IMG/VR virus record: IMGVR_UViG_3300025875_000021
Span: 1 to 63,293 of that record
Length of the DNA: 63,293 nt
Direction: 5' to 3' (one strand)
Source: a virus
Taxonomy: Duplodnaviria > Caudoviricetes
The notes beneath the pieces are model-generated. The model was not told the DNA's origin. It did not search any database and was given only the letters and a program-made list of their open reading frames with translations. Positions within the stretch are counted from its first letter, which is position 1. The number at the start of each line of letters is the position of its first letter. This document shows positions 1,211-62,626 of this stretch, piece by piece. A program made the position numbers and the translations under genes.

Positions 1211-1413
1211 TGAGCGACATATTCGTGCATCCCACGTACGGGGGTCCACGAATGGACAGGCAGCCGGTGAACGTATGCCCGTGCTGCACGGGTAGACCGA
1301 TCAAGAGTCATCGCAGGGAGTTATGCAAGGACTGCTGGGACGCCTGCGTCCGCATGGTCTCCTGCAACCACACAACATCCAACACACCAAGCTCTGAAGG
1401 AGCATCCTCATGA
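1210..1413 (+). CDS. Small Cys-rich hypothetical protein
   Basis: CPCC/CKDC motifs; start and stop overlap the neighbouring genes. Confidence 0.55.
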   Translation: MSDIFVHPTYGGPRMDRQPVNVCPCCTGRPIKSHRRELCKDCWDACVRMVSCNHTTSNTPSSEGASS

Positions 1414-2306
1414 ACGTCGGCAACATTCTCAACTCGGCCAAGACGGCCGTCACCAGCAAGGCAGGACGTTCACTCCTGCACGTCCAGAAGCACTCCCCCA
1501 TCCTCCTCTTCGCCGCCGGCGGCGTCGGTGCGGTCACCAGCACCGTCCTGGCCTGCAAGGCTACGCTGCGTCTCGAGGAGACCACGTCCGACCACAACGA
1601 CAAGCTCGCCGACATCGAGTCCGCAGTCGAGAAGGGTGAGACCCCCTCGGGTCGGCCCTACTCGTCCGCTGACGGTCGACGTGATGCTGCCGTCGTCCGC
1701 GTCCGCAAGACGGTCGACGTCTGCAAGCTCTACGGTCCGGCCATCCTCGTGGGTGGTCTGTCCGTCGCGGCCCTGACCGGCTCGCACGTCATCCTGAGCA
1801 AGCGCAACACCGGCCTCATGGCAGCTTACGCGGCGCTCGACGCAGGCTTCCGGGACTACCGGGGCCGTGTCGCCAACCGCGTCGGTGTCGAGGAGGAGCG
1901 TGACCTCTACCTCAACGCCGAGGACCGTGAGGGCGTCGACGACGACGGCACCGCGGTCATCAAGAAGGTGGCCGAGGTGGCTCCCGGTACGTTCTACGCT
2001 CGGGTCTTCGACAAGAGCGTTGCACCCCACCAGGACCGCAACGAGCACAATGAGTTCTTCCTCCGTGGGGTCCAGTCGTACGCGAACGACATGCTGAACT
2101 CCCGAGGTCACCTGTTCCTGAACGAGCTGTACCGCGACCTCGGCCTCAGCCACACCAAGGCCGGCGCGATGGTCGGCTGGGTCAAGGGCAACCGTGAGGG
2201 TCAGGGCTTCATCGACATCGGCATCAACAACGGTCTGGTCTTCAACGGCGACGGTGGAATCGTCCTCGACTTCAACGTCGACGGCGTCATCCTCGACCTG
2301 ATCTGA
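1410..2306 (+). CDS. Conserved phage protein (DUF6353-like), paralog of 61784
   Basis: HSPILLFAAGGVGAVTSTVLACKAT, two hydrophobic segments, LFLNELYRDLG..VGW, LDFNVDG. Confidence 0.8.
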   Translation: MNVGNILNSAKTAVTSKAGRSLLHVQKHSPILLFAAGGVGAVTSTVLACKATLRLEETTSDHNDKLADIESAVEKGETPSGRPYSSADGRRDAAVVRVRKTVDVCKLYGPAILVGGLSVAALTGSHVILSKRNTGLMAAYAALDAGFRDYRGRVANRVGVEEERDLYLNAEDREGVDDDGTAVIKKVAEVAPGTFYARVFDKSVAPHQDRNEHNEFFLRGVQSYANDMLNSRGHLFLNELYRDLGLSHTKAGAMVGWVKGNREGQGFIDIGINNGLVFNGDGGIVLDFNVDGVILDLI

Positions 2307-2347
2307 TCTGTCCTACCCGTAAACACATATCTGAGAGGCAGGACAGC

Positions 2348-3310
2348 ATGGCTAAGAAGGAGATCATCAAGAACGCCGCGCTCACCGTTCGTGTGAACGA
2401 GGAGCCGATCGTCGACGCCCTGGAGTCCGTCAAGGACGCCGTCGTCGAGACGACGGGTGCGACTTACGACGTCGCTGAGGACGCGGTCGAGGCCGTCGTC
2501 TCGGCGTACCGCACCAACCCGTACATCATCGTCGGTGTCGCCGTCGTGGCGGCAAGCACCGGCGCATATCTTGGCTACCGGTACGGTGTCAAGAAGGCCG
2601 GTCTCCGGTTCGACGAGCGACTCGAGGGTGAGCTGGTCGCGATGGAGGACCACTACAAGCGGCTCGCCAAGGTCCCGCCGTACGACACCATCGAGTCAGC
2701 GGCCAAGGAGGTGCTGCCTCCCGAGACGCAGGCTGTCCTGGAGACCTACCAGGGCGGTGACGGCACGGAGATGGTTGTCGAGCTGCAGGGTCCTCTGCAG
2801 ATCTCGGAGCAGCGCCGGCAGGAGCGGGCAGCCGAGGCAGCAGAGCGTCTGCGTAAGGGCGCTCGTCCCGAAGTCGCCGAGGAGGTGCGTACGAACGTGT
2901 TTGCCAACAACAGCAATCTCCCTACGTGGGATGCGGCCTACGAGCTGACTCTTCGTGCGGAGCTCCCTGATGGGTACCCGTACGTCATCACTGCGGAGGA
3001 GTACAACTCCAACGAGAGTGACTACAACCAGGAGCAGCTGACGTACTTCGCCGGCGACGACACCCTCGTCGACTCGAAGGACATCCCTGTTGACAACGCC
3101 GAGCAGCTCGTCGGCGATGACAACCTCGAGCGCTTCGGACACGGGTCGGGCGATAGCAACATCGTCTATATCCGCAACGACAACCTGTCGATCGACATGG
3201 AGGTCGTACGAAGCGACTTCTCCTTCTCGAAGGCCGTGCACGGTTTCGACCCGGAGGTTGGTCGCTCCCTCAGCCGCGCCCCGCGGAGGATGAGGAGCGC
3301 GGATGAGTGA
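2348..3310 (+). CDS. Hypothetical protein with one TM segment
   Basis: 320-aa ORF with RBS; LTYFAGDDTL..VYIRND C-terminal domain. Confidence 0.85.
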   Translation: MAKKEIIKNAALTVRVNEEPIVDALESVKDAVVETTGATYDVAEDAVEAVVSAYRTNPYIIVGVAVVAASTGAYLGYRYGVKKAGLRFDERLEGELVAMEDHYKRLAKVPPYDTIESAAKEVLPPETQAVLETYQGGDGTEMVVELQGPLQISEQRRQERAAEAAERLRKGARPEVAEEVRTNVFANNSNLPTWDAAYELTLRAELPDGYPYVITAEEYNSNESDYNQEQLTYFAGDDTLVDSKDIPVDNAEQLVGDDNLERFGHGSGDSNIVYIRNDNLSIDMEVVRSDFSFSKAVHGFDPEVGRSLSRAPRRMRSADE

Positions 3311-3837
3311 GCGCACATCTCGACGAGCTGTATCTCACCTGGCTGTACGGTCATATCGCTAATCCAGAGATTGCGAATCCATCGCAGTCTTTCTGGAAGC
3401 TGGCGAAGCAGCTGTTCACAACCGAGTTCCTGAGCTTCGTCCCGAACGACGACAACCGCGTCGAAGACGGACGAGCTCTGAGGTACGAGTTCATCGATGA
3501 CCTAGGTCTCGAGGATGTGGACCCACACTGGATGGCAGTGGGTTGCTCATTTCTGGAGATGCTGATTGGGCTTTCCAGGCGGCTGTCCTTCCAAGACGAG
3601 GGGCAGCCGCTTGAGTGGTTCTGGCATCTCCTCGCAAATCTAGGGCTTCGATACAACGACCGTGTCCGAGAAACAACCATGGGTTATGAGATCAAGGAGG
3701 TCACCGATCGAGTCGTATACCGGACGTACGATTCAAGTGGCCGTGGCGGGCTCTTCCCGTTGATCCATCCCGACGCAGACCAGAGACGTGTAGAGCTATG
3801 GTACCAGCTCAACGCATATCTCCAGGAGCGTAACTAG
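3307..3837 (+). CDS. Conserved hypothetical protein upstream of the replicase
   Basis: NDDNRVEDGRALR, CSFLEMLIGL, GGLFPL, ELWYQLNAYL. Confidence 0.85.
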   Translation: MSAHLDELYLTWLYGHIANPEIANPSQSFWKLAKQLFTTEFLSFVPNDDNRVEDGRALRYEFIDDLGLEDVDPHWMAVGCSFLEMLIGLSRRLSFQDEGQPLEWFWHLLANLGLRYNDRVRETTMGYEIKEVTDRVVYRTYDSSGRGGLFPLIHPDADQRRVELWYQLNAYLQERN

Positions 3838-3853
3838 ATCGAGAGGAGGGTGG

Positions 3854-6800
3854 ATGGACTTCTACCGAATCGGCATCAAGGAGACCAAGGAAGGTGTCCT
3901 GGAGATCTACCCAGACTTCCTCGTAGGACGCTCTGAGGACCTGATGGTCCGCGCTCGAGGGTTCTATGCGATCTGGGATGAGAAGACCGCTCTGTGGTCC
4001 ACTGACGAGTATGACGTACAGCGTCTCGTTGACGAGGAGTTGTGGGCGTACGCAGATCAGAAGAAGGCTGAAGGGGTACCGTGCAACGTCAAGAGCATGC
4101 GGTCCTTCGACAGCAACAGCTGGAATCGGTTCCGAAGCTTCGTAGGCCAGGTCAGTGACAACAGCACCCAGTTGGATCAGTCACTGACCTTTGCTTCACA
4201 GAAGGCGGAGCGGAAGCACCACGTGAGTAAGCGTCTCTCGTACGACATCGAACCTGGCGACTGCAGCGCCTGGGACGAGATGATCGGGACGCTATATTCG
4301 GTCGAGGAGCGCACCAAGATCGAGTGGGCCATCGGCTCAGTCCTTACTGGTGACTCAAAGTCCATCGAGAAGTTCCTCGTGTTCTACGGCTCCGCAGGTA
4401 CGGGTAAGTCTACCGTACTTAAGATCATCGAGAAGCTGTTCAGGGGCTACGTGTCGAGCTTCGAGGCGAAGGCTCTGGGGTCCAACAGCAATCAGTTCGC
4501 CACGGAAGCCTTCAAGAGCAATCCTCTTGTCGCAATCCAGCATGACGGCGACTTAAGTCGGATCGAGGACAATACGGTCCTCAACAGCATCATTTCTCAC
4601 GAGCCGATGCGCATCAACGAGAAGTACAAGCCGGGCTATGACGCACAGATCAACGCGTTCCTCTTCATGGGGACAAACCAGCCCGTCAAGATTACCGACT
4701 CCAAGTCGGGCATTATTCGTCGGCTCATCGACGTCCACCCCACGGGCGTACGGATTCCGGCGAACCATTACACAACCCTGGTGTCTCGGATCGACTTCGA
4801 GCTTGGTGCAATCGCGCACCACTGCCGAGAGGTATATTTGAGCCTGGGTAAGAACCACTACAACGGCTACAAGCCGCTCGAGATGATGTTCCAGACGGAC
4901 GTGTTCTTCAACTTCGTTGAGAGCACATACGACATATTCAAGGCGCAGGACGGTACGACCCTCAAGCAGGCGTACCAGCTGTACAAGGAATTCTGCGCCG
5001 ACAGCGGGATCGAAAGACCGCTGCCCATGTACAAGATGCGAAGCGAGCTTCAGAACTACTTCGACGAGTTCAAGGATAGGGCCGAGGTCGACGGTCACAT
5101 GGTGCGGAACTACTACTCAGGTTTCAACGCTCGACCGTTCAAGGCGCCAGCGGAGGAGGCCAACACCTACTCGCTGGTTCTCGACGAGACAGAGTCCCTG
5201 CTCGACGAGATGTTGGGGTCGATGCCGGCCCAGGGTGCAACGACCGCGGGAACCCCTCTGCAACGGTGGGCTTCTGTGGCAACCACCCTGGCCGACATCG
5301 ACACCTCACAGCAGCACTTCGTGAAGGTTCCGGCCAACCATATTGTGATCGACTTCGATCTGAAGGGTGAAGATGGAGAAAAGTCACTCGAGCGAAACCT
5401 CGAAGCCGCAAGCGTCTGGCCTGTCACCTACGCCGAAATCTCGAAAGGCGGGGCAGGCATCCATCTACATTATCTCTGGACCGGTGGAGACGTGGCCGAA
5501 CTCTCGCCTACGTACTCTGATGGAATTGAGATCAAGGTGTACACAGGGGACAGCTCCCTGCGTCGCCGGTTGTCCAAGTGTAACGCGCTGCCTGTTTCAG
5601 AGCTGAGCACAGGTTTGCCTAAGAAGGAGAAGAAGATGCAGAATCCCCAAACGATGCAAAGCGAGCGGGGTCTGCGGAACCTGATCGAGCGGAACCTCCG
5701 CAAGGAGATCCACCCAGGAACCAAGCCTTCGGTCGACTTCATCAAGACGATCCTGGACGAAGCATATTCGACGGGAATGGTCTACGACGTCACAGACATG
5801 AGGTCCCGCATCATGACGTTCGCGACCAACAGCAGCAACAAGGCGATGGAGTGCCTGAAGCTGGTGCAGATCATGAAGTTCCACTCAGAGCGTGCAGAGG
5901 TGCCGGCGCAGGCCGAGCCACCCACGGATGCTCCGATTGTGTTCTTCGACGTGGAGGTATATCCCAACCTCTTCGTCGTCTGCTGGAAGTACCAGGGTGT
6001 GGACGAGGTCGCGCGGATGATCAATCCGAGCGCCCAGGAGATCGAGAAGCTTCTCAGTTTGAAGCTTGTCGGCTTCAACTGTCGGCACTACGACAACCAC
6101 ATCATCTACGCCGCATATCTGGGCTACAGCGTCGAGCAGCTGTATCAGCTTTCCCAGAAGATCATCGTGCAGAAGGATCGCAACGCATCCTTCGGCGAAG
6201 CGTACAGCATCTCCTACTCCGACATCTTCGAGTTCTCTTCGAAGAAGGAGTCGCTCAAGTGGTTCGAGATCCACCTGGGTCTCACACACATGGAGATGGA
6301 CCTGCCCTGGGATCAGCCTGTCCCGGACGAGCTTATTCCGAAGGTCGTCGAGTACTGCGTCAACGACGTCCGTGCTACGGAGGCGGTGTTCGAGGATCGC
6401 AAGGGTGACTTCACAGCTCGGCAGATTCTTGCTGAGCTGAGTGGTCTCACGATCAACGACACAACGCCGAAGCACACCGCTCGGATCATATTCGGGAACG
6501 TGAAGAACCCGCAGCAGCACTTCACCTACACTAACCTGGGTAACGAGTTCCCGGGTTACAAGTACAGCTTCGGTAAGTCGGAGTATGCTGGCGAGGATCC
6601 GGGTGAGGGCGGCTACGTGTATGCCGAGCCGGGGATCTACGAGAACGTCGCTCTGCTGGATGTAGCGTCGATGCACCCGACTTCGCTTGTCCAGCTCGGC
6701 TACTTCGGCGAGTACACCGAGAACTTCCACGATCTGTTGAAGGCTCGTCTGGCCATCAAGGCTGGCGACTACGACTCGGCTCGAGAGATGCTGGACGGTC

Positions 6801-7573
6801 GTCTCGCGCCATATCTGACGGACAAGGAGGGAGCTAAGGAGCTCGCTTATGCCCTGAAGATTGTCATCAACATCGTGTATGGCCTCACGTCAGCCAAGTT
6901 CGACAACCCGTTCAGGGACCCGCGCAACAAGGACAACATTGTTGCGAAGCGCGGCGCCCTGTTCATGATCGACCTCAAGCACGCGGTCCAGGCGGAGGGC
7001 TACACCGTCGTTCACATCAAGACGGACTCCATCAAGATTGCGAATGCTGACGAGTTCATCATCGACTTCGTTTCGAAGTTCGGGGAGAAGTACGGCTACG
7101 ACTTCGAGCACGAGGCCACGTACGAGCGGTTCTGCCTCGTGAACGATGCCGTCTATATTGCTCGGGAGGCCAACTGCCTTGGTGACTGCTGGAAGGCAGT
7201 GGGTGCGCAGTTCCAGCACCCGTTCGTCTACAAGACGCTGTTCACCGGCGAAGAGGTCACGTTCAACGACATGTGCGAGACCAAGCAGGTACAGAAGGGG
7301 TCCATGCACTTGGCGTACGAGGATGGTAAGCGCATATTCGTCGGTAAGAGCGGGCGCTTTGTGCCTGTGACATCCGGCGGAGGAACGCTGCTTCGTGTGA
7401 ATGAGGACAAGGATCACGCGGTATCTGGCACTAAGGGGTTCCTGTGGATGGACGCCGAAATGGCGAAGAAGCAGGATGACCTTGAGATCGATGTTCGATA
7501 CTTCGACGCACTTGCGGAGAAGGCCGTTGCAGCCATCAACAAGTATGGCGACTATGAGGAGTTCATCAGATGA
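3854..7573 (+). CDS. Fused SF3 (D5-like) helicase / primase / family-B-like DNA polymerase
   Basis: Walker A GSAGTGKST and MGTN; primase-like IDFD and SKGGAGIHLHY; 3'-5' exonuclease FDVE, GFNCRHYD, YCVND; polymerase motifs DVASMHPT, KIVINIVYG, IKTDS. Confidence 0.9.
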   Translation: MDFYRIGIKETKEGVLEIYPDFLVGRSEDLMVRARGFYAIWDEKTALWSTDEYDVQRLVDEELWAYADQKKAEGVPCNVKSMRSFDSNSWNRFRSFVGQVSDNSTQLDQSLTFASQKAERKHHVSKRLSYDIEPGDCSAWDEMIGTLYSVEERTKIEWAIGSVLTGDSKSIEKFLVFYGSAGTGKSTVLKIIEKLFRGYVSSFEAKALGSNSNQFATEAFKSNPLVAIQHDGDLSRIEDNTVLNSIISHEPMRINEKYKPGYDAQINAFLFMGTNQPVKITDSKSGIIRRLIDVHPTGVRIPANHYTTLVSRIDFELGAIAHHCREVYLSLGKNHYNGYKPLEMMFQTDVFFNFVESTYDIFKAQDGTTLKQAYQLYKEFCADSGIERPLPMYKMRSELQNYFDEFKDRAEVDGHMVRNYYSGFNARPFKAPAEEANTYSLVLDETESLLDEMLGSMPAQGATTAGTPLQRWASVATTLADIDTSQQHFVKVPANHIVIDFDLKGEDGEKSLERNLEAASVWPVTYAEISKGGAGIHLHYLWTGGDVAELSPTYSDGIEIKVYTGDSSLRRRLSKCNALPVSELSTGLPKKEKKMQNPQTMQSERGLRNLIERNLRKEIHPGTKPSVDFIKTILDEAYSTGMVYDVTDMRSRIMTFATNSSNKAMECLKLVQIMKFHSERAEVPAQAEPPTDAPIVFFDVEVYPNLFVVCWKYQGVDEVARMINPSAQEIEKLLSLKLVGFNCRHYDNHIIYAAYLGYSVEQLYQLSQKIIVQKDRNASFGEAYSISYSDIFEFSSKKESLKWFEIHLGLTHMEMDLPWDQPVPDELIPKVVEYCVNDVRATEAVFEDRKGDFTARQILAELSGLTINDTTPKHTARIIFGNVKNPQQHFTYTNLGNEFPGYKYSFGKSEYAGEDPGEGGYVYAEPGIYENVALLDVASMHPTSLVQLGYFGEYTENFHDLLKARLAIKAGDYDSAREMLDGRLAPYLTDKEGAKELAYALKIVINIVYGLTSAKFDNPFRDPRNKDNIVAKRGALFMIDLKHAVQAEGYTVVHIKTDSIKIANADEFIIDFVSKFGEKYGYDFEHEATYERFCLVNDAVYIAREANCLGDCWKAVGAQFQHPFVYKTLFTGEEVTFNDMCETKQVQKGSMHLAYEDGKRIFVGKSGRFVPVTSGGGTLLRVNEDKDHAVSGTKGFLWMDAEMAKKQDDLEIDVRYFDALAEKAVAAINKYGDYEEFIR

Positions 7574-8367: not shown

Positions 8368-8393
8368 CACAACATATCTGAAGGAGAACTCTG

Positions 8394-8850: not shown

Positions 8851-9437
8851 TGCCCGAGAAGAAGAGGCTAGACAACCTCACGCTCTACGGGGTGCGGCTG
8901 CTCTACCGCAACTTCGCCGGTCGTGCGCAGCAGTTCAACGAGGAGGGCAACCGCAACTTCAACATCATCCTCGACCCCGAGCTGGCCGACAAGCTGGCGC
9001 AGGACGGCTGGAACGTCAAGACGCAGCGCGTCCGTGAGGAGGGCGATATCCCGGATCGTCTCCTCGCCGTCAAGGTCAACTTCAAGAGTGAGCGACCGCC
9101 GAAGGTCGTCATGATCGCCGGCAAGAACCGCGTCGCTCTCGGCCCCGACGAGGTAGCGGTGCTCGACTTCGCTGACCTCGGCAACGTCGACGTCACGCTG
9201 AACCCATATCCGTGGGAGATGTCGGGTAAGACCGGCATCACAGCGTACCTCAAGACGTGCTACGCCACGCTCAACCAGGACGAGCTGGAGATGAAGTACG
9301 GCGACGACCAGCAGTCGGCTCTGCCGTTTGGACTCGAGGCCACCGATGGCGTCAACGACAACATCGACGAGGCTGATGGCGAGGACGAGGACGACGAACA
9401 CGCTGGGCTGCTGAGCCAGAACGAGGAGGTCGACTGA
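8850..9437 (+). CDS. Putative single-stranded DNA-binding protein
   Basis: YRNFAG..GNRNF, GWNVK, GITAYLK with an acidic C-terminal tail, in the replication module. Confidence 0.65.
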   Translation: MPEKKRLDNLTLYGVRLLYRNFAGRAQQFNEEGNRNFNIILDPELADKLAQDGWNVKTQRVREEGDIPDRLLAVKVNFKSERPPKVVMIAGKNRVALGPDEVAVLDFADLGNVDVTLNPYPWEMSGKTGITAYLKTCYATLNQDELEMKYGDDQQSALPFGLEATDGVNDNIDEADGEDEDDEHAGLLSQNEEVD

Positions 9438-9598: not shown

Positions 9599-10173
9599 TG
9601 TCCAAGCTTTCGGTCATTTTCGACATCGACGACGTCCTCATCCCGATCCTCTCGAAGGTCCACGAGGCGATCGGCGCTGCCGGTCTCAACCCGGACAACC
9701 GGAACATGACCCGGTGGGAGATGCATCTCGACTACGGCTGCACCAAGGAGCAGTGGGTCGAGGTCTTCAGTAGTCTGGCCGTTCCCGACGGGATCTACCA
9801 CGCGGCGCCATATCCTGGCGTCAAGCAAGCGATGGACAACCTGCAGGACGCCGGACACGACATCCACCTCGTGACTGCTCGTGGGTTCCATAACCACGCC
9901 GAGCAGATCCGTAAGTGGACACACGAGTGGAAGGAGCTCTGGGATATTCCAGGCACTCTCACTTTCGCCCATCGAAAGGGCGAAGAGGTCAGCCGACTGG
10001 AGGCAGACTACGCGGTGGATGACGGGATCCACAACGTTCGAGACATGACAGCTGCCGGAGCAACGGCATATCTCATGAACCGAGACCACAACCTGAGCGA
10101 CTACTGGCACCCGGACTACCGAGTCAACAGCGTCTCGGAGTTCGTGCTGAAGGTGTTGAACACTGATGGCTGA
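9598..10173 (+). CDS. HAD-family 5'(3')-deoxyribonucleotidase-like phosphatase
   Basis: FDIDDVL, PYPGV, LVTAR, K, AVDD HAD motifs. Confidence 0.85.
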   Translation: MSKLSVIFDIDDVLIPILSKVHEAIGAAGLNPDNRNMTRWEMHLDYGCTKEQWVEVFSSLAVPDGIYHAAPYPGVKQAMDNLQDAGHDIHLVTARGFHNHAEQIRKWTHEWKELWDIPGTLTFAHRKGEEVSRLEADYAVDDGIHNVRDMTAAGATAYLMNRDHNLSDYWHPDYRVNSVSEFVLKVLNTDG

Positions 10174-10944: not shown

Positions 10945-11219
10945 TGGGCCAGTACCTGCCAAAGCGCAGCAACGTCGAGGCACACCAGCTCAAGCACGAC
11001 AACGCCGATGACCTGGCACGTCTCTGCGGAGGCGTCGTGGTCGAGGAGCGTGATCCTGAAACCAACAAGCGATTCCCCGGAATCAACGTGCCCACCCTCA
11101 AGGGGATGAAGCGCCTTGGCTTCGAGGACTACCTCGTGCAGGATGCCAACAGCGGTGCCTGGAGCGTCGTGCGGAAGCACGGGTTCGAAGCTGCATATTC
11201 GGAGGCCGAGGATGGCTAA
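10944..11219 (+). CDS. Hypothetical protein, similar to the N-terminal domain of 11602
   Basis: VEAHQL..LARLCGG..INVP..DYLV pattern. Confidence 0.75.
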   Translation: MGQYLPKRSNVEAHQLKHDNADDLARLCGGVVVEERDPETNKRFPGINVPTLKGMKRLGFEDYLVQDANSGAWSVVRKHGFEAAYSEAEDG

Positions 11220-11487: not shown

Positions 11488-11561
11488 TGATCGTAGACCT
11501 TCTTCTCATCATTGCGATCTGTTTGATGGTCGCATATCTAGTCGACACCTGGCTCCCGTAA
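11487..11561 (+). CDS. 24-aa hydrophobic peptide
   Basis: TGATG coupling; MIVDLLLIIAICLMVAYLVDTWLP. Confidence 0.45.
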   Translation: MIVDLLLIIAICLMVAYLVDTWLP

Positions 11562-12467: not shown

Positions 12468-12633
12468 AATGGGCAACTCTTGGCGCGGTTCGCGCTGGAG
12501 CTAGTTCCGTCCATAATGGTCCAAAACGAAGAGAAAGGGGCGCATCATGCGTGGCGTCGCCTGGAAGTAGTAAGTAGCTGGTGGCACTGGCCGGGAGGCG
12601 CACTGCACCACACCATATCCGAAAGGAGTACTT

Positions 12634-12816
12634 ATGCCTGACGGATCATGGGGTAAGAAGCCCAAGTACGACGTTCGTAAGGGTTCAGACGGTATGTGGC
12701 GAGCATATTACATGGGCTATCCAATGCACGAAGACGGCGTGTCGAAGGGCGTTGCTCGACTGCGAGCTAAACACTTTGAACAGGGCATCATATCCCAAGA
12801 CAGGAGCCTTAAATGA
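12634..12816 (+). CDS. Hypothetical protein
   Basis: Strong RBS aaaggag. Confidence 0.7.
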   Translation: MPDGSWGKKPKYDVRKGSDGMWRAYYMGYPMHEDGVSKGVARLRAKHFEQGIISQDRSLK

Positions 12817-16662: not shown

Positions 16663-16811
16663 TGGAGCCATATCTCAACCTCATCCAGCGACTCAGTAAG
16701 TGGTGGAGCCGCAAGCAGGGCGAGGCCGAGCTGCGTATGGAGATGGGTGCGCAGCTCCGACAGCAGAGGGAGCTTAAGAAGCACCCGAACTGGGAGGACC
16801 ATCAGGGGTAG
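16662..16811 (+). CDS. Small hypothetical protein (49 aa, not in ORF track)
   Basis: TGATG coupling; MEPYLNLIQR... Confidence 0.5.
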   Translation: MEPYLNLIQRLSKWWSRKQGEAELRMEMGAQLRQQRELKKHPNWEDHQG

Positions 16812-53700: not shown

Positions 53701-55908
53701 ATTGCTGGAATGCTTCTGGCACCTGTGGTGCCTGTGATCCTTGCCCTTGCGGCAGCGATTGTCCTCGTGGGCGCAGGTATGGCTCTCGCAGGTGTGGGTG
53801 TGCTAGCCTTCGCCAGTGCGTTCTCCATCGCAGTCGCTCTAGGTGCTGCAGGCGTTAAGGTTCTCGGCGATATTCTGGGAACGTTCATCTCCGCCATTCC
53901 GGCCGCTCTGGCTGCGTTCGGTAAGGGGATCGTAGCATTCGCAAAGGTGATCGCAAGCGCCGGAAAGGCGTTCTTCGATGCCTTCACGACGATTCTGTCG
54001 TCGATCATCAAGGCCATCATGGCCAACCTTCCGAAGATCGGCGCTCTGTTCCAGCAGCTCGTGTCTACGGCGCTTCGTATCCTCACCACGTCCATCCCAC
54101 AGATGGTCAGTGCGGGTATGCGAATCATCCTGGGGGTTCTCCAGGGGATCAACCAGAACATCGACAAGATCATTCCGGTTGCCGTAAGCATTACCGTCAA
54201 GTTCATCAATGGTGTAGCTAAGGGACTCCCGGCAATCATTGATGCGGGCGTTAAGCTGGTTATTGCCTTTGTCAACGGAGTGTCTCGAGCAATCGAGGCT
54301 AACTCCGCAGCTATGGGTGCTGCCGGCGGACGACTCGGTGTCGCCATCGTACAGGGTATGGCTCGGGGTATCGCTGGTGGTCTTAGCGTTGTGACACAGG
54401 CTGCCGGACAGCTTGCGTTGTCGGCCCTGAACAAGGCAAAGAGCGTCCTTGGAATCAAGTCTCCGTCCAAGGAGTTCGAGAAGATTGGTAAGTTCTCGGG
54501 CGAGGGCTTCGTCAAGGGGTTGACTGGAAGTCAGGACGACGTTAAGAAGTCGTTCAACACAATGAACGATCTTCTGAAGGAAGCCATGAAGGCGGCCGAG
54601 AAGGACGTTGGCGAGCATACCAAGAAGCTCAAGGATCTCAACGAGCAGAAGATGAAGATCCAGCGTGACTACAGCGCTAGGGTCCGTGCGATCACGTCGA
54701 AGGACAAGCGCGATGCTCAGGATGCCCGGAAGCTCAAGGATATTCAGGAAGAGCTGACGGTTGTCCGGAACAAGAACCGTGAGGCAATTCGGCTTGAGAC
54801 TCTGGCGTTGATTCAGTCAACGAAGGAGCGGCACCTCGCAGGGGTGGCTCACCGTGAGCTCACCACTAAGATGAACGATGAAGAGAAGCAGCTTGAATCG
54901 CTTGCTATTCGTTACGATCGATACACGGATCAAATCAAGGAGGCCGACAAGGCCCTCGAGGATTCGATCAAGACTCGTGACGACTACAATGCCAGCGTTA
55001 CCAAGCAGTACAGTGACATGCCTGATGTCTCTAAGGAGACAAAGCTCGTCGACTATATTGACGGCCTTGAGGCTAAGATTGCGGACACGCAGGCGTTCGC
55101 GACTGCTATCCAGCAGCTTCGAACTCTGGGTCTTGGTGATGAGCTCTACAAGGAGCTCCTGGCCAAGGGTCTTGACGCGCTTCCGTTCGTCACTGAGCTT
55201 CTTGCAGGCGGAAAGTCTGCCGTTGATGAGGTGAGCACTCTCAGTGCAACTCTCGGTAAGGCTGCGCAGGGTCTCGGTACTGAGGCGTCTAAGCAGCTGT
55301 ACCAGGCTGGTGTTGATGCTGCTCAGGGTCTGGTCAACGGACTCAAGAGTCAGCAGGCGGCCATCGACAAGCAGATGCAGACCATTGCAAACGCTATGGT
55401 TGTCACGCTCAAGAAGAAGCTCCAGATCAAGTCACCCTCACGCGAGTTCGCCAAGATCGGCGTATTCTCGGTGAAGGGTCTTGCTAAGGGTCTTGCTGAC
55501 ACTCGGATCATCGACCGAGCTTCAGCTGATCTGGGTAATGCTGCACTGAGTGGCCTGGGCAAGTCTCTGGCTCAGCTTGGTGCTGCTTTGGACGGGGAGA
55601 TCGACATGAACCCGACCATTACGCCAGTTCTGGATCTCTCTACGCTTCAGAGAGATGCTTCCCGCATGAACACGCTATTCGCCGCACAAGCAATTGCGGC
55701 TGACGTGTCCTTCGGTCAGGCGTCGTCCATATCTGCTGCTCAGGCAGCTGCTCAGAGTGCTACTCCGGCCCCAGCTCCGGCTCCGGTCGTGCACAAGGAG
55801 ATCAAGCTCGAGCAGAACAACTACTCGCCGGTGGCCCTGTCCCCGGTGAAGATCTATCGTCAGACGAAGAACCTGACCGCACTGGCAAAGGAGGCGTTGA
55901 ACGCATGA
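50710..55908 (+). CDS. Tape measure protein
   Basis: 1732 aa, Ala/Gly-rich helical; YADKTIYNF, IKSPS twice; hydrophobic central repeats. Confidence 0.92.
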   Translation: MSVDSRVVDLKFNYSSFADGVSAVLRGVSQLAKGLQLTGATKGIADVQASVGKTNFNPMLSGLSQVTNGFSVMQVAGVTALATIVNKAVSAGAEMVKSLSVTPIMDGFREYELKMGSIQTILANTSRHGTTLETVNSELDQLNKYADKTIYNFAEMTKNASLFTNSGMKIEDATQVIKGFSNAAAASGTDANGAARAAYQLSQAFNTGTIRLMDWRSLTNAGMGSKNMQDSLIKIADGMGMFNGETTTATAATKDFNGSLEKNWLSADVMSSYLRIMAGDMTDAEMASLGLDKAAQTALKAEAKMAEEAATKVRTLSQLMGTIKEAVASGWTDTFELLFGDFTEATDMFTKVNDVVSKFVGGMTDARNKVLGDWKALGGRTVLIEGIKNAFQALVGILKPVKDAFRQIFPAKTGADLFAMTQKFTEFTEKLKMGAETTEKVKRIFAGLFAAFSIVGQILGGAIGLIGRFFNALSGGSGGLLNLGAGIGMFLVNLDLMMKKTGIVKTVFSKIGDVLAIPLKALGALGKAFASLFDNFDLGGVSKIGAAFGAVGDRLSPLQAIGERLRGMFSALGGIVKSAMGKIGEALSGIGDVIANAFQSADYGKVLDTLNVGLFAAIVFALKKFMAGGINVNVGEGLFGGITETLGGVTKALGTMQATLKSDMLLKIAGAIALLAGSLVVLSMVDSGDLTKALVAMSAGFVTMAAALAYLSTNTTLLGAIKMGPIAASLVVLSAALMGIALAMKIMATMSWEDITQALVGIGGSLTVIALAMRLMPKNMMAQSVSIGLLAVSLMALAGAVKIFAAIETSAVASGLVKIGAALVVLAAGMRLMPKNMLVQAVSLTVLGGALLVIAAAVKVFATMSLGDIGQGLLAIGGALVIIAAAMSIMPPTMILLGPALLVVAAALVVISGALAIMGGQSIGEMAIGLTTLAGALTILAVGLTAMSLALPGAAALVVAAGALMLLTPVLITLGTLDIMTIVTGLGALAAIFAVFGIAGMLLAPVVPVILALAAAIVLVGAGMALAGVGVLAFASAFSIAVALGAAGVKVLGDILGTFISAIPAALAAFGKGIVAFAKVIASAGKAFFDAFTTILSSIIKAIMANLPKIGALFQQLVSTALRILTTSIPQMVSAGMRIILGVLQGINQNIDKIIPVAVSITVKFINGVAKGLPAIIDAGVKLVIAFVNGVSRAIEANSAAMGAAGGRLGVAIVQGMARGIAGGLSVVTQAAGQLALSALNKAKSVLGIKSPSKEFEKIGKFSGEGFVKGLTGSQDDVKKSFNTMNDLLKEAMKAAEKDVGEHTKKLKDLNEQKMKIQRDYSARVRAITSKDKRDAQDARKLKDIQEELTVVRNKNREAIRLETLALIQSTKERHLAGVAHRELTTKMNDEEKQLESLAIRYDRYTDQIKEADKALEDSIKTRDDYNASVTKQYSDMPDVSKETKLVDYIDGLEAKIADTQAFATAIQQLRTLGLGDELYKELLAKGLDALPFVTELLAGGKSAVDEVSTLSATLGKAAQGLGTEASKQLYQAGVDAAQGLVNGLKSQQAAIDKQMQTIANAMVVTLKKKLQIKSPSREFAKIGVFSVKGLAKGLADTRIIDRASADLGNAALSGLGKSLAQLGAALDGEIDMNPTITPVLDLSTLQRDASRMNTLFAAQAIAADVSFGQASSISAAQAAAQSATPAPAPAPVVHKEIKLEQNNYSPVALSPVKIYRQTKNLTALAKEALNA

Positions 55909-56717
55909 TCAAGATGACAAAGGTACGCCTCCACGGGCTCTCGACCATCGATCTTCCGGTGGTCGGGGCCCGTCCGTCGGACAGGTATATTCTGAAGACG
56001 GCCGAAGGTCTCGGTCCGCCTGAGGTCGACGTCTCGCAGTCACGCACCCTTCACGCTGGGGATGTGTATCAGAGACGTCGACCTCAGTCCCGAGAAGTCG
56101 TTCTAACAGTTCGTCTGAATCCGGACCACCAAATGAGTGAGACGGCCGCCGACCTGCGCGCGGAGCTCTACGGGCTTTTGACACCCGGCTACCTCGACGA
56201 GGTTAAGATTGATATCCTCGATGGTGACGACCTTCAGGCTTCAACGGCTGGAAACGTCAGCAAGCTGGAGATCAACCCGTTCAGCGCAGAGCCGGAAGTG
56301 CAGATCACGATTCCGTGTCTTCAGGCATATCTTCACGCGCCCAACATCCTGTATGTCTTCCCGGGTAGCGCTGCTGATCCAAGCATCATGAATGTCGGAA
56401 CTGCACCCACGGGGTTTCGTGCTGAGATCTTATTCACCGCCCCTACAAACTGGTGGGGCCTGTTTAACGGTCGCGGACAAAGTATGACATTCTATCACGC
56501 CTTTCACGCAGGCGACAAGCTGACGTTCGACACGAACCCGGGGAGTCGAGGCATCTGGCTGACTCGAGACGGTGCGACATATTCGATCCTTCAGTCGCTT
56601 GCTTCCGATTCCGTCTGGCACATGCTGTATGGCGGTAACAATACCTTTGAGGCCACTTCCAACACGGGCTACACCTGGGGTAACGTGTACTACACGCCAC
56701 AGTACTGGGGGATCTGA
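55905..56717 (+). CDS. Distal tail protein-like
   Basis: Follows the tape measure gene; GLGPP, INPFS, N.G.APTG. Confidence 0.7.
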   Translation: MIKMTKVRLHGLSTIDLPVVGARPSDRYILKTAEGLGPPEVDVSQSRTLHAGDVYQRRRPQSREVVLTVRLNPDHQMSETAADLRAELYGLLTPGYLDEVKIDILDGDDLQASTAGNVSKLEINPFSAEPEVQITIPCLQAYLHAPNILYVFPGSAADPSIMNVGTAPTGFRAEILFTAPTNWWGLFNGRGQSMTFYHAFHAGDKLTFDTNPGSRGIWLTRDGATYSILQSLASDSVWHMLYGGNNTFEATSNTGYTWGNVYYTPQYWGI

Positions 56718-57937
56718 TGGACGTACTTCGATTGAATGACACGTCATATCTTCCCGATGAGCTTGTTGAGGGGTACAGCTCCATGATTTGGACTGAGCGG
56801 CATACGGGTCATGGTGAGTTTCAGCTTCACACCCCTCTCATTCAAAAGACCAAGGAACTCATTCCTGAGGGCTCTCTCCTAACGCTTCTGGACAGTCCTG
56901 AAATCATGGAGGTCGAGACACACTCGATCTCGGTCAATGATGATGGCGAGCAGGAGCTGAAGATCACCGGCAGGACGTTCGACAAGCTATTTCTGGATCG
57001 AATCATTCTTGGTGGGAACCACACCCAAGAGTGGCCGACGTCGCAGATGTATCGGTCGAACGAGCTCGTATCGGCTCTTATTTGGAATGCCGTCTCTAAC
57101 CCAACGGGTAAGAATCCGCTGAGTAAGGGCATGGGCGCAGAGCTTCTAGATCGGATCGCAAACATCGTGATTACCGATAGCTCGGCACTTTCCGAAGATC
57201 CCACTATGTGGTGGGTTAAGCCCGGTCCTCTTCAGGAGTTCCTGGATGACGTTCTTGCCATCAGCGGTCTCGGCATCCGAACTATTCGCCCAACCAATGT
57301 CGGAGGCGCCGTTGTCTCATTCGATGTTTCAGACACGACGAACTATGGCAAGTACTCCAAGACGTCTCACAGTCCGGTAACCGAGGTTCAGTTCAACGTG
57401 TATCAGGGAGCAGATCGAACGCGCTACAGCTCTACGAATGAGCCAGTCGTGTTCCACTACGCTTCGGGTCATATTGACTCACCGGAGTACCTGTTCTCGA
57501 GCAAGGACATCAAGAACATCGCCTACGTAACTTCTTCGATTGGTGGCGTGTTTGTTCACAAGATGGATGGCGATTTCTGGTGGACTCCAGGAACACAGGC
57601 TCCTCCGGTTAATCCGTCAGGCCGAGCTCGCAAGATGCTGTGGGTTGATGGGGGATCGATCGGATCCGATGAGGACTTTGCGACCTTCATCAACGCCCTA
57701 GCACAGAAGGGCATGGCTGAGCTAGCTAAGCACAACCGTCAGATTCTCTTTGACGGAGCCATATCCCCGCTTTCCCCCCACAAGTACGGGGTGCACTACT
57801 TCCTCGGAGACACTGTCACTCTCTCAGCAGAGTATGGCTTCGAGCAGGACATGATGGTGGCCGAGTACGTACGCACTGACGACGAGACAGGCGATCAGGG
57901 ATTCCCGACGCTTATTCTCGCAAACCCGGAGGTCTAA
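56717..57937 (+). CDS. Minor tail protein (ReqiPepy6 Gp37-like hub)
   Basis: YSSMIWTER..GEFQL; YGVHYFLGD.V. Confidence 0.75.
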   Translation: MDVLRLNDTSYLPDELVEGYSSMIWTERHTGHGEFQLHTPLIQKTKELIPEGSLLTLLDSPEIMEVETHSISVNDDGEQELKITGRTFDKLFLDRIILGGNHTQEWPTSQMYRSNELVSALIWNAVSNPTGKNPLSKGMGAELLDRIANIVITDSSALSEDPTMWWVKPGPLQEFLDDVLAISGLGIRTIRPTNVGGAVVSFDVSDTTNYGKYSKTSHSPVTEVQFNVYQGADRTRYSSTNEPVVFHYASGHIDSPEYLFSSKDIKNIAYVTSSIGGVFVHKMDGDFWWTPGTQAPPVNPSGRARKMLWVDGGSIGSDEDFATFINALAQKGMAELAKHNRQILFDGAISPLSPHKYGVHYFLGDTVTLSAEYGFEQDMMVAEYVRTDDETGDQGFPTLILANPEV

Positions 57938-58416
57938 TGACACAAGTAGAGCAAGGAGATGTCAACACAAAGAATCGACGATGGTTTGGGCTGAGGCCTT
58001 GGGGTCGTCACAGTCTTGTCCTGCTGGTCGCGGGACTAGCCTATGTGTTCATCGGACTAACATATCTGATCACACCGAACAATCTTGCCCGGGCCGAAAG
58101 TCTGGTCATCGCAGAAAGGTGGTGGGAGCTCGAGTACTGGTACGCCGTCTTTGTGCTTGTTGGGGTTCTCACAGTCATTTCCTCGAGATGGCCGCCTACC
58201 GCCGATAAGTGGGGCTACATGACCCTTACCGGATTCACTGCCGGGTGGGGTGCGTTCTACATGACGGGGGTGATATTTAAGGACACAGGTATCGCCAACC
58301 TTGGAGGAGCGCTCATCTGGTGGTTGGTCGCATTCATGTGGTGGGCTATCAGTGGGCTGAACAATCCGCCCAAGGTGATTGTGAAGGTCGTGGAGGTGAT
58401 TCGCAATGCTAGATAG
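57937..58416 (+). CDS. 4-TM membrane protein (lysis region)
   Basis: Four hydrophobic segments. Confidence 0.75.
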   Translation: MTQVEQGDVNTKNRRWFGLRPWGRHSLVLLVAGLAYVFIGLTYLITPNNLARAESLVIAERWWELEYWYAVFVLVGVLTVISSRWPPTADKWGYMTLTGFTAGWGAFYMTGVIFKDTGIANLGGALIWWLVAFMWWAISGLNNPPKVIVKVVEVIRNAR

Positions 58417-60013: not shown

Positions 60014-60247
60014 ATGAAGCTGTTTCAGAACAAGGCACTCTCGCTGACTGTCACCAACAACCCCCAGCCCCCCACCGACTCTTCTGAGCCGGCAACGTCC
60101 AAACGCGTGGATGCAGACGCGATCGCCCAGATCGCCATGTACCACGCGAACCACGCTGCCGCGCTCATATCTGCGGTGTACGTGGGCCGGAAGGTCGTCA
60201 ACACTGCCTGCGAGATCGCCATCATCGCCGCCAACAAGCGCCTCTAG
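60014..60247 (+). CDS. Cassette protein
   Basis: RBS gaggag. Confidence 0.8.
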   Translation: MKLFQNKALSLTVTNNPQPPTDSSEPATSKRVDADAIAQIAMYHANHAAALISAVYVGRKVVNTACEIAIIAANKRL

Positions 60248-60930: not shown

Positions 60931-60964
60931 TCGCGACATATTCATGGCCTCTAATGAGAACCCC
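60931..60964 (+). promoter_or_regulatory. Conserved phage promoter-like motif
   Basis: TCGCGAcatattcatggccTCTAATgagaacccc. Confidence 0.85.
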
Positions 60965-61161: not shown

Positions 61162-61199
61162 TTCGAGCCGTTCGCTCATATCCCAGCTACCGTTCCAAG

Positions 61200-61223: not shown

Positions 61224-61231
61224 TCTTTGCC

Positions 61232-61387: not shown

Positions 61388-61441
61388 CTGAGACACCTAC
61401 CTGGTGTCTAAGCTTTGCCCATATCCCGAGAGGAAGTCGCC

Positions 61442-61621
61442 ATGTACGTCTTCAGAACGCGCAACAAGCCGACCCACATCATCGTCGCAGGAGAGCGCTT
61501 CATGGTCAAGCCGCGCTACAAGCTCACCACGTTCATCCTCGACCTCATCCTCGCCTGTGTCACGGGTGGTCTGTGGTTGCTGTGGCCGCTGTTCAAGTTC
61601 CTCCGGAACGGGCGCCGCTGA
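61442..61621 (+). CDS. Small membrane protein
   Basis: RBS gagg; FILDLILACVTGGLWLLW. Confidence 0.75.
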   Translation: MYVFRTRNKPTHIIVAGERFMVKPRYKLTTFILDLILACVTGGLWLLWPLFKFLRNGRR

Positions 61622-61622
61622 C

Positions 61623-61787
61623 ATGCTCGAGTTCCTGATGGGTGTCGCCGGTACAGGCCTTGCAATCCTGATCGTCGTTTCCCTGGCCGCTTTCCTGTGG
61701 GGGATGGGTAGCTTGATCAGCTACCTGATCCGCCAGTCCAACGCCAACCCGGCCTTCGCGGCCCAGCTGAAGAGGAGCAACCTGTGA
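61623..61787 (+). CDS. Small membrane protein
   Basis: MLEFLMGVAG.. hydrophobic. Confidence 0.6.
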   Translation: MLEFLMGVAGTGLAILIVVSLAAFLWGMGSLISYLIRQSNANPAFAAQLKRSNL

Positions 61788-62569
61788 GAAGTCTCACCGA
61801 GATCGTCAAGGTCACCGAGAAGCTGGCGATCGACAACTCGCCGGCGCTCCTGACGGCAGTCGGAGTCGTGGGTACCATTTCCACGGCGGTCTTTGCTGCA
61901 CGAGGAGCATTGCGATACGACGAGGCGGTGAACATCGAAATCGAGTACCGTCGGCAAAACGACCCCTCGTTTGTGAGCGTCCTCGATCCGCGCACTCGAG
62001 TCATGCTCATGGGTCATCACTTCGGCCCCGCGATCATCGTCGGCAGCCTCACCGTCACCGCGATCATCGGAGCCAACCGGATCGGTACTCGTCGGGCAGC
62101 TGCTATGGCTGCGGCGTACACCATCGCGCAGGAGGGCTTCGACGAGTACAAGTACAAGGTGCGTGAGAAGATCGGCGAGAACAAGGAGCGTGCGCTGCGT
62201 GACGACATCGCACAGGATCGCGTGAATCGTAACCCGGCCGGTGAGAGCAACGTCATCATTGTCGGCTCAGGAGATGTTCTCTGCTACGAGATGATGAATG
62301 ATCGCTACTTCCAGAGCTCCGTCGAGGAGATCAAGAAGGCGATGAACGACACGAACTACCAGGTCAACAACGACTCGTACGCATCGCTGTCGGACTTCTA
62401 CGACCGCGTTGGGCTTCCCCACACGTCCGTCTCCGACTCGATCGGGTGGCGGAGCGACGAGAAGCTTCTCGAGATCGAGTTCAGCACGGTGCTGGCTCCG
62501 GATGGTCGACCTTGTGTCGCCTTCGACTTTCGGGTCGATCCCGTTCGCAACTACCACAAGCTCCACTAG
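61784..62569 (+). CDS. Conserved phage protein (DUF6353-like), paralog of 1410
   Basis: NSPALLTAVGVVGTISTAV, AAAMAAAY, YASLSDFYDRVG..IGW. Confidence 0.8.
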   Translation: MRSLTEIVKVTEKLAIDNSPALLTAVGVVGTISTAVFAARGALRYDEAVNIEIEYRRQNDPSFVSVLDPRTRVMLMGHHFGPAIIVGSLTVTAIIGANRIGTRRAAAMAAAYTIAQEGFDEYKYKVREKIGENKERALRDDIAQDRVNRNPAGESNVIIVGSGDVLCYEMMNDRYFQSSVEEIKKAMNDTNYQVNNDSYASLSDFYDRVGLPHTSVSDSIGWRSDEKLLEIEFSTVLAPDGRPCVAFDFRVDPVRNYHKLH

Positions 62570-62626
62570 GGACTACTGCTCGTAGTACCCGTACATCCCA
62601 CATCCGTCATATCCGAAAGGCACAAC

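Follow-up and report, generated by a model that had tools for sequence, protein, structure and literature searches.

Strand-polarised enrichment of a short AT-rich word, CATATY, and depletion of its reverse complement in an actinophage genome and several of its relatives

IMG/VR virus record IMGVR_UViG_3300025875_000021, a stretch of 63,293 nucleotides that was analysed at its full length and is called the window here, represents a complete, circularly permuted metagenomic actinophage genome, in which an earlier note had drawn attention to a hexamer, CATATY (Y, pyrimidine), that seemed to be confined almost entirely to one strand. The first 127 bases recur exactly at the end (1-127 = 63167-63293), indicating a circular assembly with 63,166 bp of unique sequence, and CATATY is absent from the duplicated stretch. 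Self-trained open reading frame (ORF) scoring of the window gave 82 ORFs on the + strand versus one doubtful ORF of 47 amino acids on the - strand, and the non-coding share of the genome is 8.8%. Among public sequencing runs, the sequence was found in groundwater metagenome contigs only (3 runs). Judged by sequence similarity, the window falls into the supercluster of Rhodococcus phage ReqiPoco6 (Poco6 below), the Gordonia cluster DJ phages and Lactococcus phage 1706, a group of actinophages and phage 1706 for which a protein resembling YonO and RNA-dependent RNA polymerase (RdRP) has been proposed as a signature (10.1101/842583).

A protein of this kind, a single-chain RNA polymerase (RNAP) of 917 amino acids (Table 1), matches PHROG 4291 ('RNA-dependent RNA polymerase', E=0) over residues 4-916, has the Pfam matches HTH_7 and Sigma70_r4_2, and carries an ADFDGD catalytic loop that is invariant in 8/8 aligned homologues; some 250 phage records carry the polymerase. 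It is the only group-wide conserved protein we found with sequence-specific DNA-binding motifs. In 7/7 annotated relatives, no large gene follows the polymerase gene before the right (cos) end is reached; the window is therefore permuted, with the equivalent of that end predicted from synteny at ~26.0-26.3 kb. All genes lie on one strand in the same seven relatives, among which a genome with genes on the other strand was sought and none was found; thus, the directions of transcription and replication are inseparable in this group. The other large protein of interest is a fusion of a superfamily 3 (SF3) helicase and a family-B DNA polymerase (helicase-PolB), which is 62% identical to the 'DNA primase/polymerase' of ReqiPoco6/ReqiPepy6 and Gordonia cluster DJ phages. 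The SF3-helicase part of primase-helicases is found at residues ~120-440 and the family-B polymerase at ~665-1060; the fusion aligns with PHROG DNA-primase families at their positions 329-827, with residues 495-786 of PDB 7ola and with the PolB structure 3k57, and its only Pfam match is DUF5906. No integrase was detected among the proteins scanned (the scan was not exhaustive), and the genomes are of lytic type.

Exact counting of CATATY in the window gave 62 copies on the + strand and 2 on the - strand, in close agreement with the earlier estimate by eye of about 60 and about two, the two reverse copies lying where they had been placed (near 19782 and 24790) and all 31 of the 31 coordinates then listed being correct. 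The rough expectation of ~15 copies per strand was also of the right order, as dinucleotide shuffles give about 12 per strand (24.49 +/- 4.55 on both strands, maximum 38; 0/100 shuffles reach 64). By sequence form, the counts are 37:2 for CATATC and 25:0 for CATATT, with 3 CATATG and no CATATA. At the seventh base, C and T are each present in 27 of the 62 sites, G in 6 and A in 2; 54/62 sites thus read CATATYY, and the flanks beyond carry no information. The mean density is ~1 site per kb. As had been noted, the sites occur between genes (17/62) and in different reading frames within genes, where all three are used (45/62: CAT-ATY 10, NCA-TAT-YNN 25, NNC-ATA-TYN 10).

Table 1. Positions in the window of CATATY copies, candidate reader genes and other features (SD, Shine-Dalgarno sequence; HTH, helix-turn-helix; hyphens in frames mark codon boundaries)
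Feature	Position	Strand	Context
YonO/RdRP-like single-chain RNAP, 917 aa	23011..25764	+	HTH motifs at both ends; putative reader
SF3-helicase/family-B DNA polymerase fusion, 1239 aa	3854..7573	+	11 BATATY sites vs 2.4 expected
HNH endonuclease gene	21598..22098
38-nt repeat (starts)	78, 16828, 17099, 59142, 59598, 59963, 60286, 60628, 60930, 61231		63244 duplicates 78
CATATT	1218..1223	+	intergenic
CATATC	2326..2331	+	intergenic, 22 nt before start codon, just 5' of SD
CATATC	2565..2570	+	NCA-TAT-Y
CATATC	3352..3357	+	CAT-ATC
CATATC	3815..3820	+	NCA-TAT-Y
CATATT	4933..4938	+	NNC-ATA-TT, helicase-PolB gene
CATATT	5339..5344	+	CAT-ATT, helicase-PolB gene
CATATT	5763..5768	+	NCA-TAT-T, helicase-PolB gene
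CATATC	6114..6119	+	NCA-TAT-C, helicase-PolB gene
CATATT	6487..6492	+	NNC-ATA-TT, helicase-PolB gene
CATATC	6810..6815	+	NCA-TAT-C, helicase-PolB gene
CATATT	7333..7338	+	NNC-ATA-TT, helicase-PolB gene
CATATC	8373..8378	+	intergenic, 21 nt before start codon, 5' of SD
CATATC	9205..9210	+	NCA-TAT-C
CATATC	9809..9814	+	NCA-TAT-C
CATATC	10067..10072	+	NCA-TAT-C
CATATT	11194..11199	+	NCA-TAT-T
CATATC	11533..11538	+	intergenic
CATATC	12614..12619	+	intergenic by gene calls made here; then AAAGGAG
CATATT	12704..12709	+	intergenic by gene calls made here
CATATC	12789..12794	+	intergenic, 24 nt before start codon
CATATC	13139..13144	+	CAT-ATC
CATATC	13377..13382	+	NCA-TAT-C
CATATC	15921..15926	+	CAT-ATC
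CATATT	16189..16194	+	NCA-TAT-T
CATATC	16669..16674	+	NCA-TAT-C
CATATC	18766..18771	+	intergenic, 41 nt before start codon
CATATC	19162..19167	+	intergenic by gene calls made here; then GTAGGAG
CATATC, reverse copy (one of only two)	19782..19787	-
CATATC	20194..20199	+	intergenic, 68 nt before helicase gene
CATATT	20576..20581	+	NNC-ATA-TT
CATATC	20943..20948	+	CAT-ATC
CATATC	21687..21692	+	NNC-ATA-TC
CATATT	22710..22715	+	NCA-TAT-T
CATATT	22836..22841	+	NCA-TAT-T
CATATC	24647..24652	+	NCA-TAT-C, RNAP gene
CATATC, second reverse copy	24790..24795	-	within RNAP gene
CATATC	25094..25099	+	NCA-TAT-C, RNAP gene
CATATT	26251..26256	+	intergenic, first of pair flanking CCCCGGGGG
CATATT	26268..26273	+	intergenic, second of pair flanking CCCCGGGGG
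CATATC	31497..31502	+	NCA-TAT-C
CATATT	34786..34791	+	NCA-TAT-T
CATATT	35088..35093	+	CAT-ATT
CATATT	35405..35410	+	NNC-ATA-TT
CATATC	37681..37686	+	CAT-ATC, terminase gene
CATATT	39265..39270	+	NCA-TAT-T
CATATT	39809..39814	+	NCA-TAT-T
CATATT	45698..45703	+	NNC-ATA-TT
CATATC	47408..47413	+	CAT-ATC
CATATT	49969..49974	+	CAT-ATT
CATATC	50502..50507	+	NCA-TAT-C
CATATT	52835..52840	+	NCA-TAT-T, tape measure gene
CATATC	55728..55733	+	NNC-ATA-TC, tape measure gene
CATATC	56326..56331	+	NCA-TAT-C
CATATT	56578..56583	+	NCA-TAT-T
CATATC	56745..56750	+	intergenic by gene calls made here, 38 nt before start codon
CATATT	57470..57475	+	CAT-ATT
CATATC	57760..57765	+	NNC-ATA-TC
CATATC	58061..58066	+	NCA-TAT-C
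CATATC	60166..60171	+	NNC-ATA-TC
CATATT	60937..60942	+	intergenic, within one copy of 38-nt promoter-like repeat
CATATC	61177..61182	+	intergenic
CATATC	61420..61425	+	intergenic, 22 nt before start codon, 5' of SD
CATATC	62608..62613	+	intergenic, 19 nt before start codon

Considering that all genes lie on the + strand and that many words are skewed in such a genome (e.g., AAGGAG, 76:11), the asymmetry might be a by-product of coding, composition or mutation bias. Three null models, each with 400 shuffles of 19,097 codons, kept the proteins and codon usage and left intergenic sites fixed: a genome-wide synonymous shuffle, a synonymous shuffle within genes, and a shuffle of third bases only in which the dinucleotide at the junction of codon positions 3 and 1 was also kept. 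Their totals, with the 17 fixed intergenic sites included, are 24.1, 26.9 and 27.2 (standard deviations 2.5-2.9, maxima 35-36) against 62 observed, or about 7-10 expected against 45 observed in the coding part alone. Conversely, RATATG (R, purine) occurs on the + strand twice, against 15.7, 14.2 and 9.8 expected. In terms of codons, Tyr is encoded by TAT in 25/29 NCA-Tyr-Y contexts versus 136/598 (22-23%) elsewhere and 0/9 NCA-Tyr-R contexts (which would give CATATR), and 10 of the 26 ATA codons of the genome fall in the motif. The excess is strongest in non-coding DNA, where 17 sense copies stand against 1.7 expected (region-wise shuffles, maximum 6/300). Among all 5-, 6- and 7-mers compared with these nulls, the most enriched are CATAT, ATATT, ATATTC, CATATT, ATATCT, CATATC, CATATCT and CATATTC. 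Moreover, the natural coding bias is opposite in sign in phage 1706 (CATATY 34:110) and in the unrelated phages Gaea and RER2, and parts of the genomes rich in the motif have a higher GC content at four-fold degenerate sites, the reverse of what a composition effect would produce. The by-product reading is thus refuted, and we give it practically no chance. The oriented signal proposed in the earlier note withstands a null that preserves codons and dipeptides, and its ten-fold excess in non-coding DNA, its rank among k-mers and its conserved positions (see below) agree with it: CATATY is a selected, direction-dependent signal of the sense (non-template) strand and not a by-product of coding.

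The same polarity and enrichment recur in relatives, in which the core shifts to BATATT(Y) (B, any base except A). Counts of ATATT and CATATY on the two strands are 131:1 and 74:0 in Gordonia phage Gravy (GC 51%), 179:8 and 66:2 in Poco6 (GC 53%), 61:3 and 31:0 in Microbacterium phage DizzyRudy (GC 56.5%; 50 of 55.8 kb), and 29:2 and 19:2 in Streptomyces phage RosaAsantewaa (GC 59%). With local synonymous shuffles, ATATT is the top pentamer in all four (z 13.9, 20.6, 12.0 and 8.4, respectively), and the word is the strongest k-mer outlier in these four genomes and the window. Two other supercluster members, Arthrobacter phage Correa (75:92) and phage 1706, lack the polarity; they serve as negative controls of the method, which found no outstanding word in either (maximum z 4.3 and ~4.4, compared with 6.9 in T7). 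Phages of the same hosts but unrelated descent are not polar either, with coding:antisense counts of ATATT of 2:4 in Gordonia terrae phage Gaea and of 0:3 and 1:3 in the two gene-oriented arms of Rhodococcus phage RER2. The trait is therefore specific to this phage lineage, in which the word is a polar, over-represented and strongly selected oligomer, and phages with the core infect hosts from at least four genera. Literature searches gave no description of the word, and it is not described in the available text of 10.1101/842583, PMC12859696, PMC9671010 and 10.1101/2022.11.23.517428, whose supplements may hold motif tables.

To follow the trait further, the 10 kb (at least 6 kb) before the polymerase gene were surveyed in 34 uncultivated relatives and 8 reference genomes, a locus being called polar if it had at least 8 copies at a ratio of at least 4:1. 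The uncultivated loci were 34 of the 80 from an alignment-based scan of viral contigs, the other 46 being too short; a scan with a single protein gave 2 loci only. Fourteen loci are polar, 7 weak and 21 not polar, some of the last resting on very few copies. On a quick tree of the polymerase, the polar state requires 7 changes versus 12 with shuffled labels (1/500 as low); the trait is therefore inherited, and yet has been gained or lost several times. No gene family tracks it by presence or absence across 8 genomes; ThyX alone is common to the four strongest carriers, and Correa also has an annotated ThyX.

The orientation opposite to the sense word is depleted genome-wide, in genes and spacers and even where the sense copy is not enriched. 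In non-coding DNA, sense copies number 17 against 1.7 expected in the window, 35 against 5.2 in Gravy, 29 against 4.0 in Poco6, 20 against 1.7 in DizzyRudy and 35 against 7.2 in Count, and antisense copies 1 against 1.5, 1 against 5.4, 1 against 4.7, 0 against 2.1 and 2 against 8.2, respectively. By region, RATATG is seen 0 and 1 times in the window against 5.4 expected in each case, and AATAT in Gravy once against 10.0 in the left arm and 0 times against 15.3 in the middle. Such a purge might reflect escape from an orientation-dependent host defence, for example a Type III restriction enzyme needing two inverse sites, for which the strand bias of CAGCAG (EcoP15I) in T7 is the precedent: this asymmetric hexamer likewise sits on one strand (0 on +, 36 on -) of a phage with one-stranded genes. 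However, the orientation retained in T7 matches its codon expectation (36 vs 35.2), and the precedent can thus explain the purge only, whereas the sense word here is enriched 2-5-fold within genes and 5-12-fold between them, and its copies are spaced and positionally conserved. Its preference for sites before start codons would also be left unexplained, and its core occurs in phages of at least four host genera. We consider restriction escape highly improbable.

Regional profiles of the sense word differ among phages. In Gravy and Poco6, it is at neutral level in the lysis/terminase/portal/capsid block (6 vs 8.8 and 3 vs 7.2 expected) and in the RNAP gene (0 vs 0.5-0.8), and enriched 2.4-3.2-fold from the tape-measure gene to the nucleases (125 vs 52.8 and 160 vs 49.9). 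Every region of the window shows an excess (left arm, 11 vs 3.6; other regions, 2 vs 0.1, 45 vs 21.0 and 2 vs 0.4), with the highest density from 55.7 kb round to 26.3 kb, and RosaAsantewaa is enriched in tail genes only (19 vs 4.7; replication genes, 4 vs 3.4). Avoidance of the sense word in head genes was considered and rejected, as the within-gene shuffle shows a neutral level; the local shuffle that keeps junction dinucleotides masks any depletion there. Toward the right end, density climbs in Poco6 and Gravy, and the last ~3 kb before that end are without copies in 3 phages.

Over-representation of one orientation with a purge of the other is the hallmark of KOPS-type words, and the motif could accordingly be imagined as a polarity cue for a DNA translocase acting in entry, packaging or concatemer processing, much as KOPS guide FtsK, misoriented copies stalling or reversing the motor. 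The rise in density toward the right end and the turnover of single sites at kept density (see below) would suit such a cue. On the other hand, we identified no sequence-specific motor candidate, the density is well above the needs of guidance, the last ~3 kb are empty in 3 phages, and the pattern along the genome varies between phages; a translocase cue appears quite unlikely. Chi (RecBCD/AddAB) and KOPS, the polar words of bacterial replichores, are G-rich, 5-8 bases long and less strongly skewed. They share with the present word the over-representation of one orientation, the counter-selection of the other and a function by density instead of single sites, but the present word is AT-rich and confined to one phage lineage, and phages of other descent on the same hosts lack it.

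At high density, copies of the word keep their distance. In Gravy and Poco6, with one site per 0.22-0.28 kb, the minimum spacing is 56-57 bp, and gaps below 60 bp number 1 against 31-41 expected. DizzyRudy has 1 such gap where 9.6 are expected, and Count 21 where 52.7 are expected. Spacing has a coefficient of variation of 0.68-0.72 against 0.99. The corresponding test in the window is not significant (0.83 vs 0.97, P 0.13) because its site density is too low. A hard minimum spacing on one strand could be expected of a strand-specific nicking target, like the interruptions of T5, at which opposite copies would produce double-strand breaks and close pairs would lose oligonucleotides, and these genomes have one or more HNH endonuclease genes (one in the window; relatives annotate one or more). 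Nevertheless, neither HNH nor any other gene tracks the trait in the 8 genomes, more than 100 nicks per genome would probably be visible as pile-ups of read starts, which the available text of the DJ papers does not mention, and there is no recognised benefit that could drive a 2-5-fold enrichment. Nicking is, in our judgement, very unlikely.

Relative to genes, the density of sites in five phages pooled is raised 2.3-fold (62 vs 27) between -45 and -16 ahead of start codons and reduced from -15 to 0, and at least seven sites in the window lie 4-9 nt 5' of an SD-like run. In the helicase-PolB gene, orthologues of six carriers have 9-20 sites versus 2.4-6.8 expected, compared with 2 versus 2.7 in RosaAsantewaa and 7 versus 7.1 in Correa. 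Sites occupy shared alignment columns of this gene 15 times between Gravy and OhMyWard (1.7-3.1 expected) and 5 times between the window and OhMyWard (0.5-1.0). Among Gordonia DJ phages, codons for the same residue are identical in 36/43 cases inside the word and in 623/1010 elsewhere, a further point against a coding by-product. This excess is gone between Gravy and Poco6 (17/32 vs 452/887), indicating that single sites persist for some time before they turn over, while the density stays.

The facts to be explained are an excess in one orientation, a genome-wide purge of the other, independence of reading frame, a scale of 0.2-1 kb with mutual exclusion, and a regional profile that varies. 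CATATY is probably a direction-sensitive signal read by a phage enzyme. The earlier note had suggested, as examples, the lagging-strand recognition site of the fused primase in unidirectional replication, or a packaging or ejection cue. In a broader form of the primase idea, the + strand would serve as lagging-strand template at rightward forks, on which a primase or the phage RNAP would start primers opposite the 3' pyrimidines. Known primase sites template a purine start, as the YY of 54/62 sites would; its shortness and strand specificity would also suit a priming site, the density is comparable with Okazaki fragment lengths (1 per kb here, 1 per 0.22-0.28 kb in Gravy/Poco6), and the minimum spacing in Gravy, Poco6 and DizzyRudy is in line with it. 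In addition, no primase catalytic domain was detected in the fusion, and no primase domain in the 28/82 proteins scanned with Pfam (several orphan proteins remain), so that with such a replicase something unconventional must prime. The same result leaves the fused primase that the note had in mind unsupported, and priming does not predict that the other orientation should be depleted throughout the genome. Furthermore, enrichment is missing from the head-gene block of Gravy and Poco6, roughly one third of each genome, which also must replicate, and four-fold-site skews carry no replication signature, with no shift along the genomes or at the borders of motif-rich regions.

T7 offers a direct comparison, since its gp4 primase also uses a short word in one reading orientation with many copies per genome. 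The T7 primase pentamers are [GT][GT]GTC, and in T7, whose genes are one-stranded, they occur 187 times on + (161.1 expected, 1.16-fold) and 215 times on -, the complement on + (215 vs 222.3) not being depleted; they are thus barely enriched and non-polar, as opposed to polarities of 31:1 to 131:1 here. The core of the site is 5'-GTC (PMC2910064). Priming is the weaker account, which explains the excess, frame independence and length scale but not the purge or the regional gaps, and we regard it as unlikely.

Our preferred, though still tentative, reading is that CATATY(Y)/BATATT(Y) may be a minimal, AT-rich signal at which the phage YonO/RdRP-like RNAP initiates or loads, both the reader and the act being inferred. 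The polymerase would initiate or load at sense-strand copies, which would be kept dense (~1 per kb here and ~1 per 0.24 kb in Gordonia and Rhodococcus relatives), preferentially just 5' of ribosome-binding sites, and antisense copies would trigger antisense RNA and head-on collisions; being harmful, they would be purged everywhere. Initiation would account at once for the purge, the preference for spacers and positions before SD sequences, the AT-rich core in GC-rich DNA and the profile by gene class, and the regional enrichment resembles gene classes read by different polymerases. As for a promoter, a phage-encoded RNAP is present and the orientation is sense-only (62:2 here; 131:1, 179:8 and 61:3 in relatives). 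Position relative to genes points both ways, with 17/62 sites in the 8.8% of non-coding DNA and a peak before start codons, but 45/62 sites within genes. The DNA-binding motifs of the RNAP, the restriction of the trait to this lineage and the finding of only one further repeated oriented element (see below) also speak for this reading.

Several observations weigh against this proposal. Most sites (45/62) are inside genes, the intergenic preference may reflect weaker constraint there, and in Gravy sites come every 240 bp, far more densely than in any promoter set known to us. Correa and 1706 carry a similar RNAP (52% and 38% identity; 55% and 41% in the homologue alignment) with conserved HTH segments and yet no polarity, and the polymerase thus does not require a motif array. 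Regional patterns vary, RosaAsantewaa being enriched in tail genes and the window also in its left arm, and the motif-rich tape-measure and minor-tail genes of Gravy and Poco6 fit an early/late split poorly. YonO itself is described as transcribing one long operon from a single start, and its promoter specificity as not established (PMC5467207).

Other non-canonical phage RNAPs, such as the non-virion polymerases of phiKZ and AR9 and RNAPII of N4, use short initiator-type promoters. Likeness to these lies in the phage's own two-barrel polymerase, the AT-rich, sense-only word and some copies before ribosome-binding sites, and the difference in tens to hundreds of copies, mostly genic, without a longer consensus. 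Stoperators are 13-14 bp long, occur in a few dozen copies and are the binding sites of an immunity repressor in temperate phages. Promoter motifs have been reported for P23-45 (10.1101/2022.12.01.518664), and for crAss-like phi14:2 the available account gives no common motif upstream of virion-polymerase transcripts (10.1101/2020.03.07.982082). In cluster A mycobacteriophages, stoperators are described as asymmetric sites across the genome (PMC9283540), inside and between genes and in one orientation relative to transcription, as here, but our word has only 6-7 bp of information, up to about 200 copies and lytic-type genomes.

A more far-reaching version, which we consider doubtful, is that a branch of actinophages has replaced few long promoters by pervasive sense-strand initiation, its YonO-like single-chain RNAP using an AT-rich initiator of 5-7 bases every 0.2-1 kb, at least ~55 bp apart and purged of antisense copies. 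If this were true, the same starts could also prime the displaced strand, so that one signal would serve transcription and lagging-strand synthesis by a primase-less helicase-PolB replicase. In any case, the word offers a concrete test sequence for the promoter specificity of YonO/RdRP-like polymerases and for helicase-PolB priming, and is present in isolates that grow on the harmless laboratory hosts Gordonia terrae and Microbacterium foliorum. It may further serve as a strand and orientation marker for metagenomic contigs of this group, and calls for caution when such phages are recoded or codon-optimised.

Two known elements were also considered as the identity of the word and rejected. An RNase E-type cleavage site (consensus RN↓CNU) fits CATATY but not BATATT and leaves the purge of the DNA complement unexplained, and in a host sigma-A -10 box (TANNNT) the T of the last position would be conserved, which it is not (8/62).

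Apart from CATATY, a single repeated oriented element was found, 38 nt long and with a TAnAAT box: CTCGCGA-N7-ATGGCCT-NTAAT-GAGAACCCC. Its ten distinct copies lie upstream of small genes, each with an SD and start codon behind it, and probably represent an early promoter class. For DJ phage Vardy, a 50-bp TATAAT-box motif in intergenic DNA is described (PMC9671010), to which this repeat probably corresponds. The idea that CATATY belongs to the repeat was discarded: BATATT is in only 4/10 distinct copies and CATATT in 1, and the repeat is thus a separate element. Among side observations on the word itself, the palindrome CCCCGGGGG is flanked by two CATATTT copies at a distance of 17 nt from each other (26240-26285); they lie in the long spacer that follows the polymerase gene, the place where relatives have their genome end. 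A perfect stem-loop of ~15 bp with GATATTC in the loop, followed by a T-rich run, lies at ~59520-59575 and is terminator-like.

Palindromes compared with synonymous shuffles show GGATCC enriched in Gravy (64 vs 21.2), CCATGG absent from Poco6 (0 vs 17.0), CTCGAG absent from RosaAsantewaa (0 vs 24.6) and Gaea (0 vs 22.5), and GCCGGC enriched in three phages. The window also has a cluster of nucleotide-pool genes (7570-8367, 9598-10173, 10166-10612 and 11602-12255) that includes ThyX (Pfam Thy1, 5.4e-40), an NT5C-like deoxynucleotidase, a dATP/dGTP diphosphohydrolase N-terminal domain (PF18909, 6.7e-31) and a protein weakly matching a pyrophosphohydrolase PHROG, and may hint at a skewed or modified deoxynucleoside triphosphate pool; no PurZ-like protein was found among the window proteins scanned. 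Two paralogous DUF6353 proteins (1410-2306 and 61784-62569), of a family kept across the supercluster with no assigned function, flank the early/replication region. Finally, four blocks of 61-117 nt with 71-80% identity recur 2.6 kb apart (29594-30482 and 32203-33109), suggesting a partial duplication between a gene for a 553-amino-acid protein and one for a tail-fibre-like protein of 636 amino acids with Mtd_N and GDPD domains.

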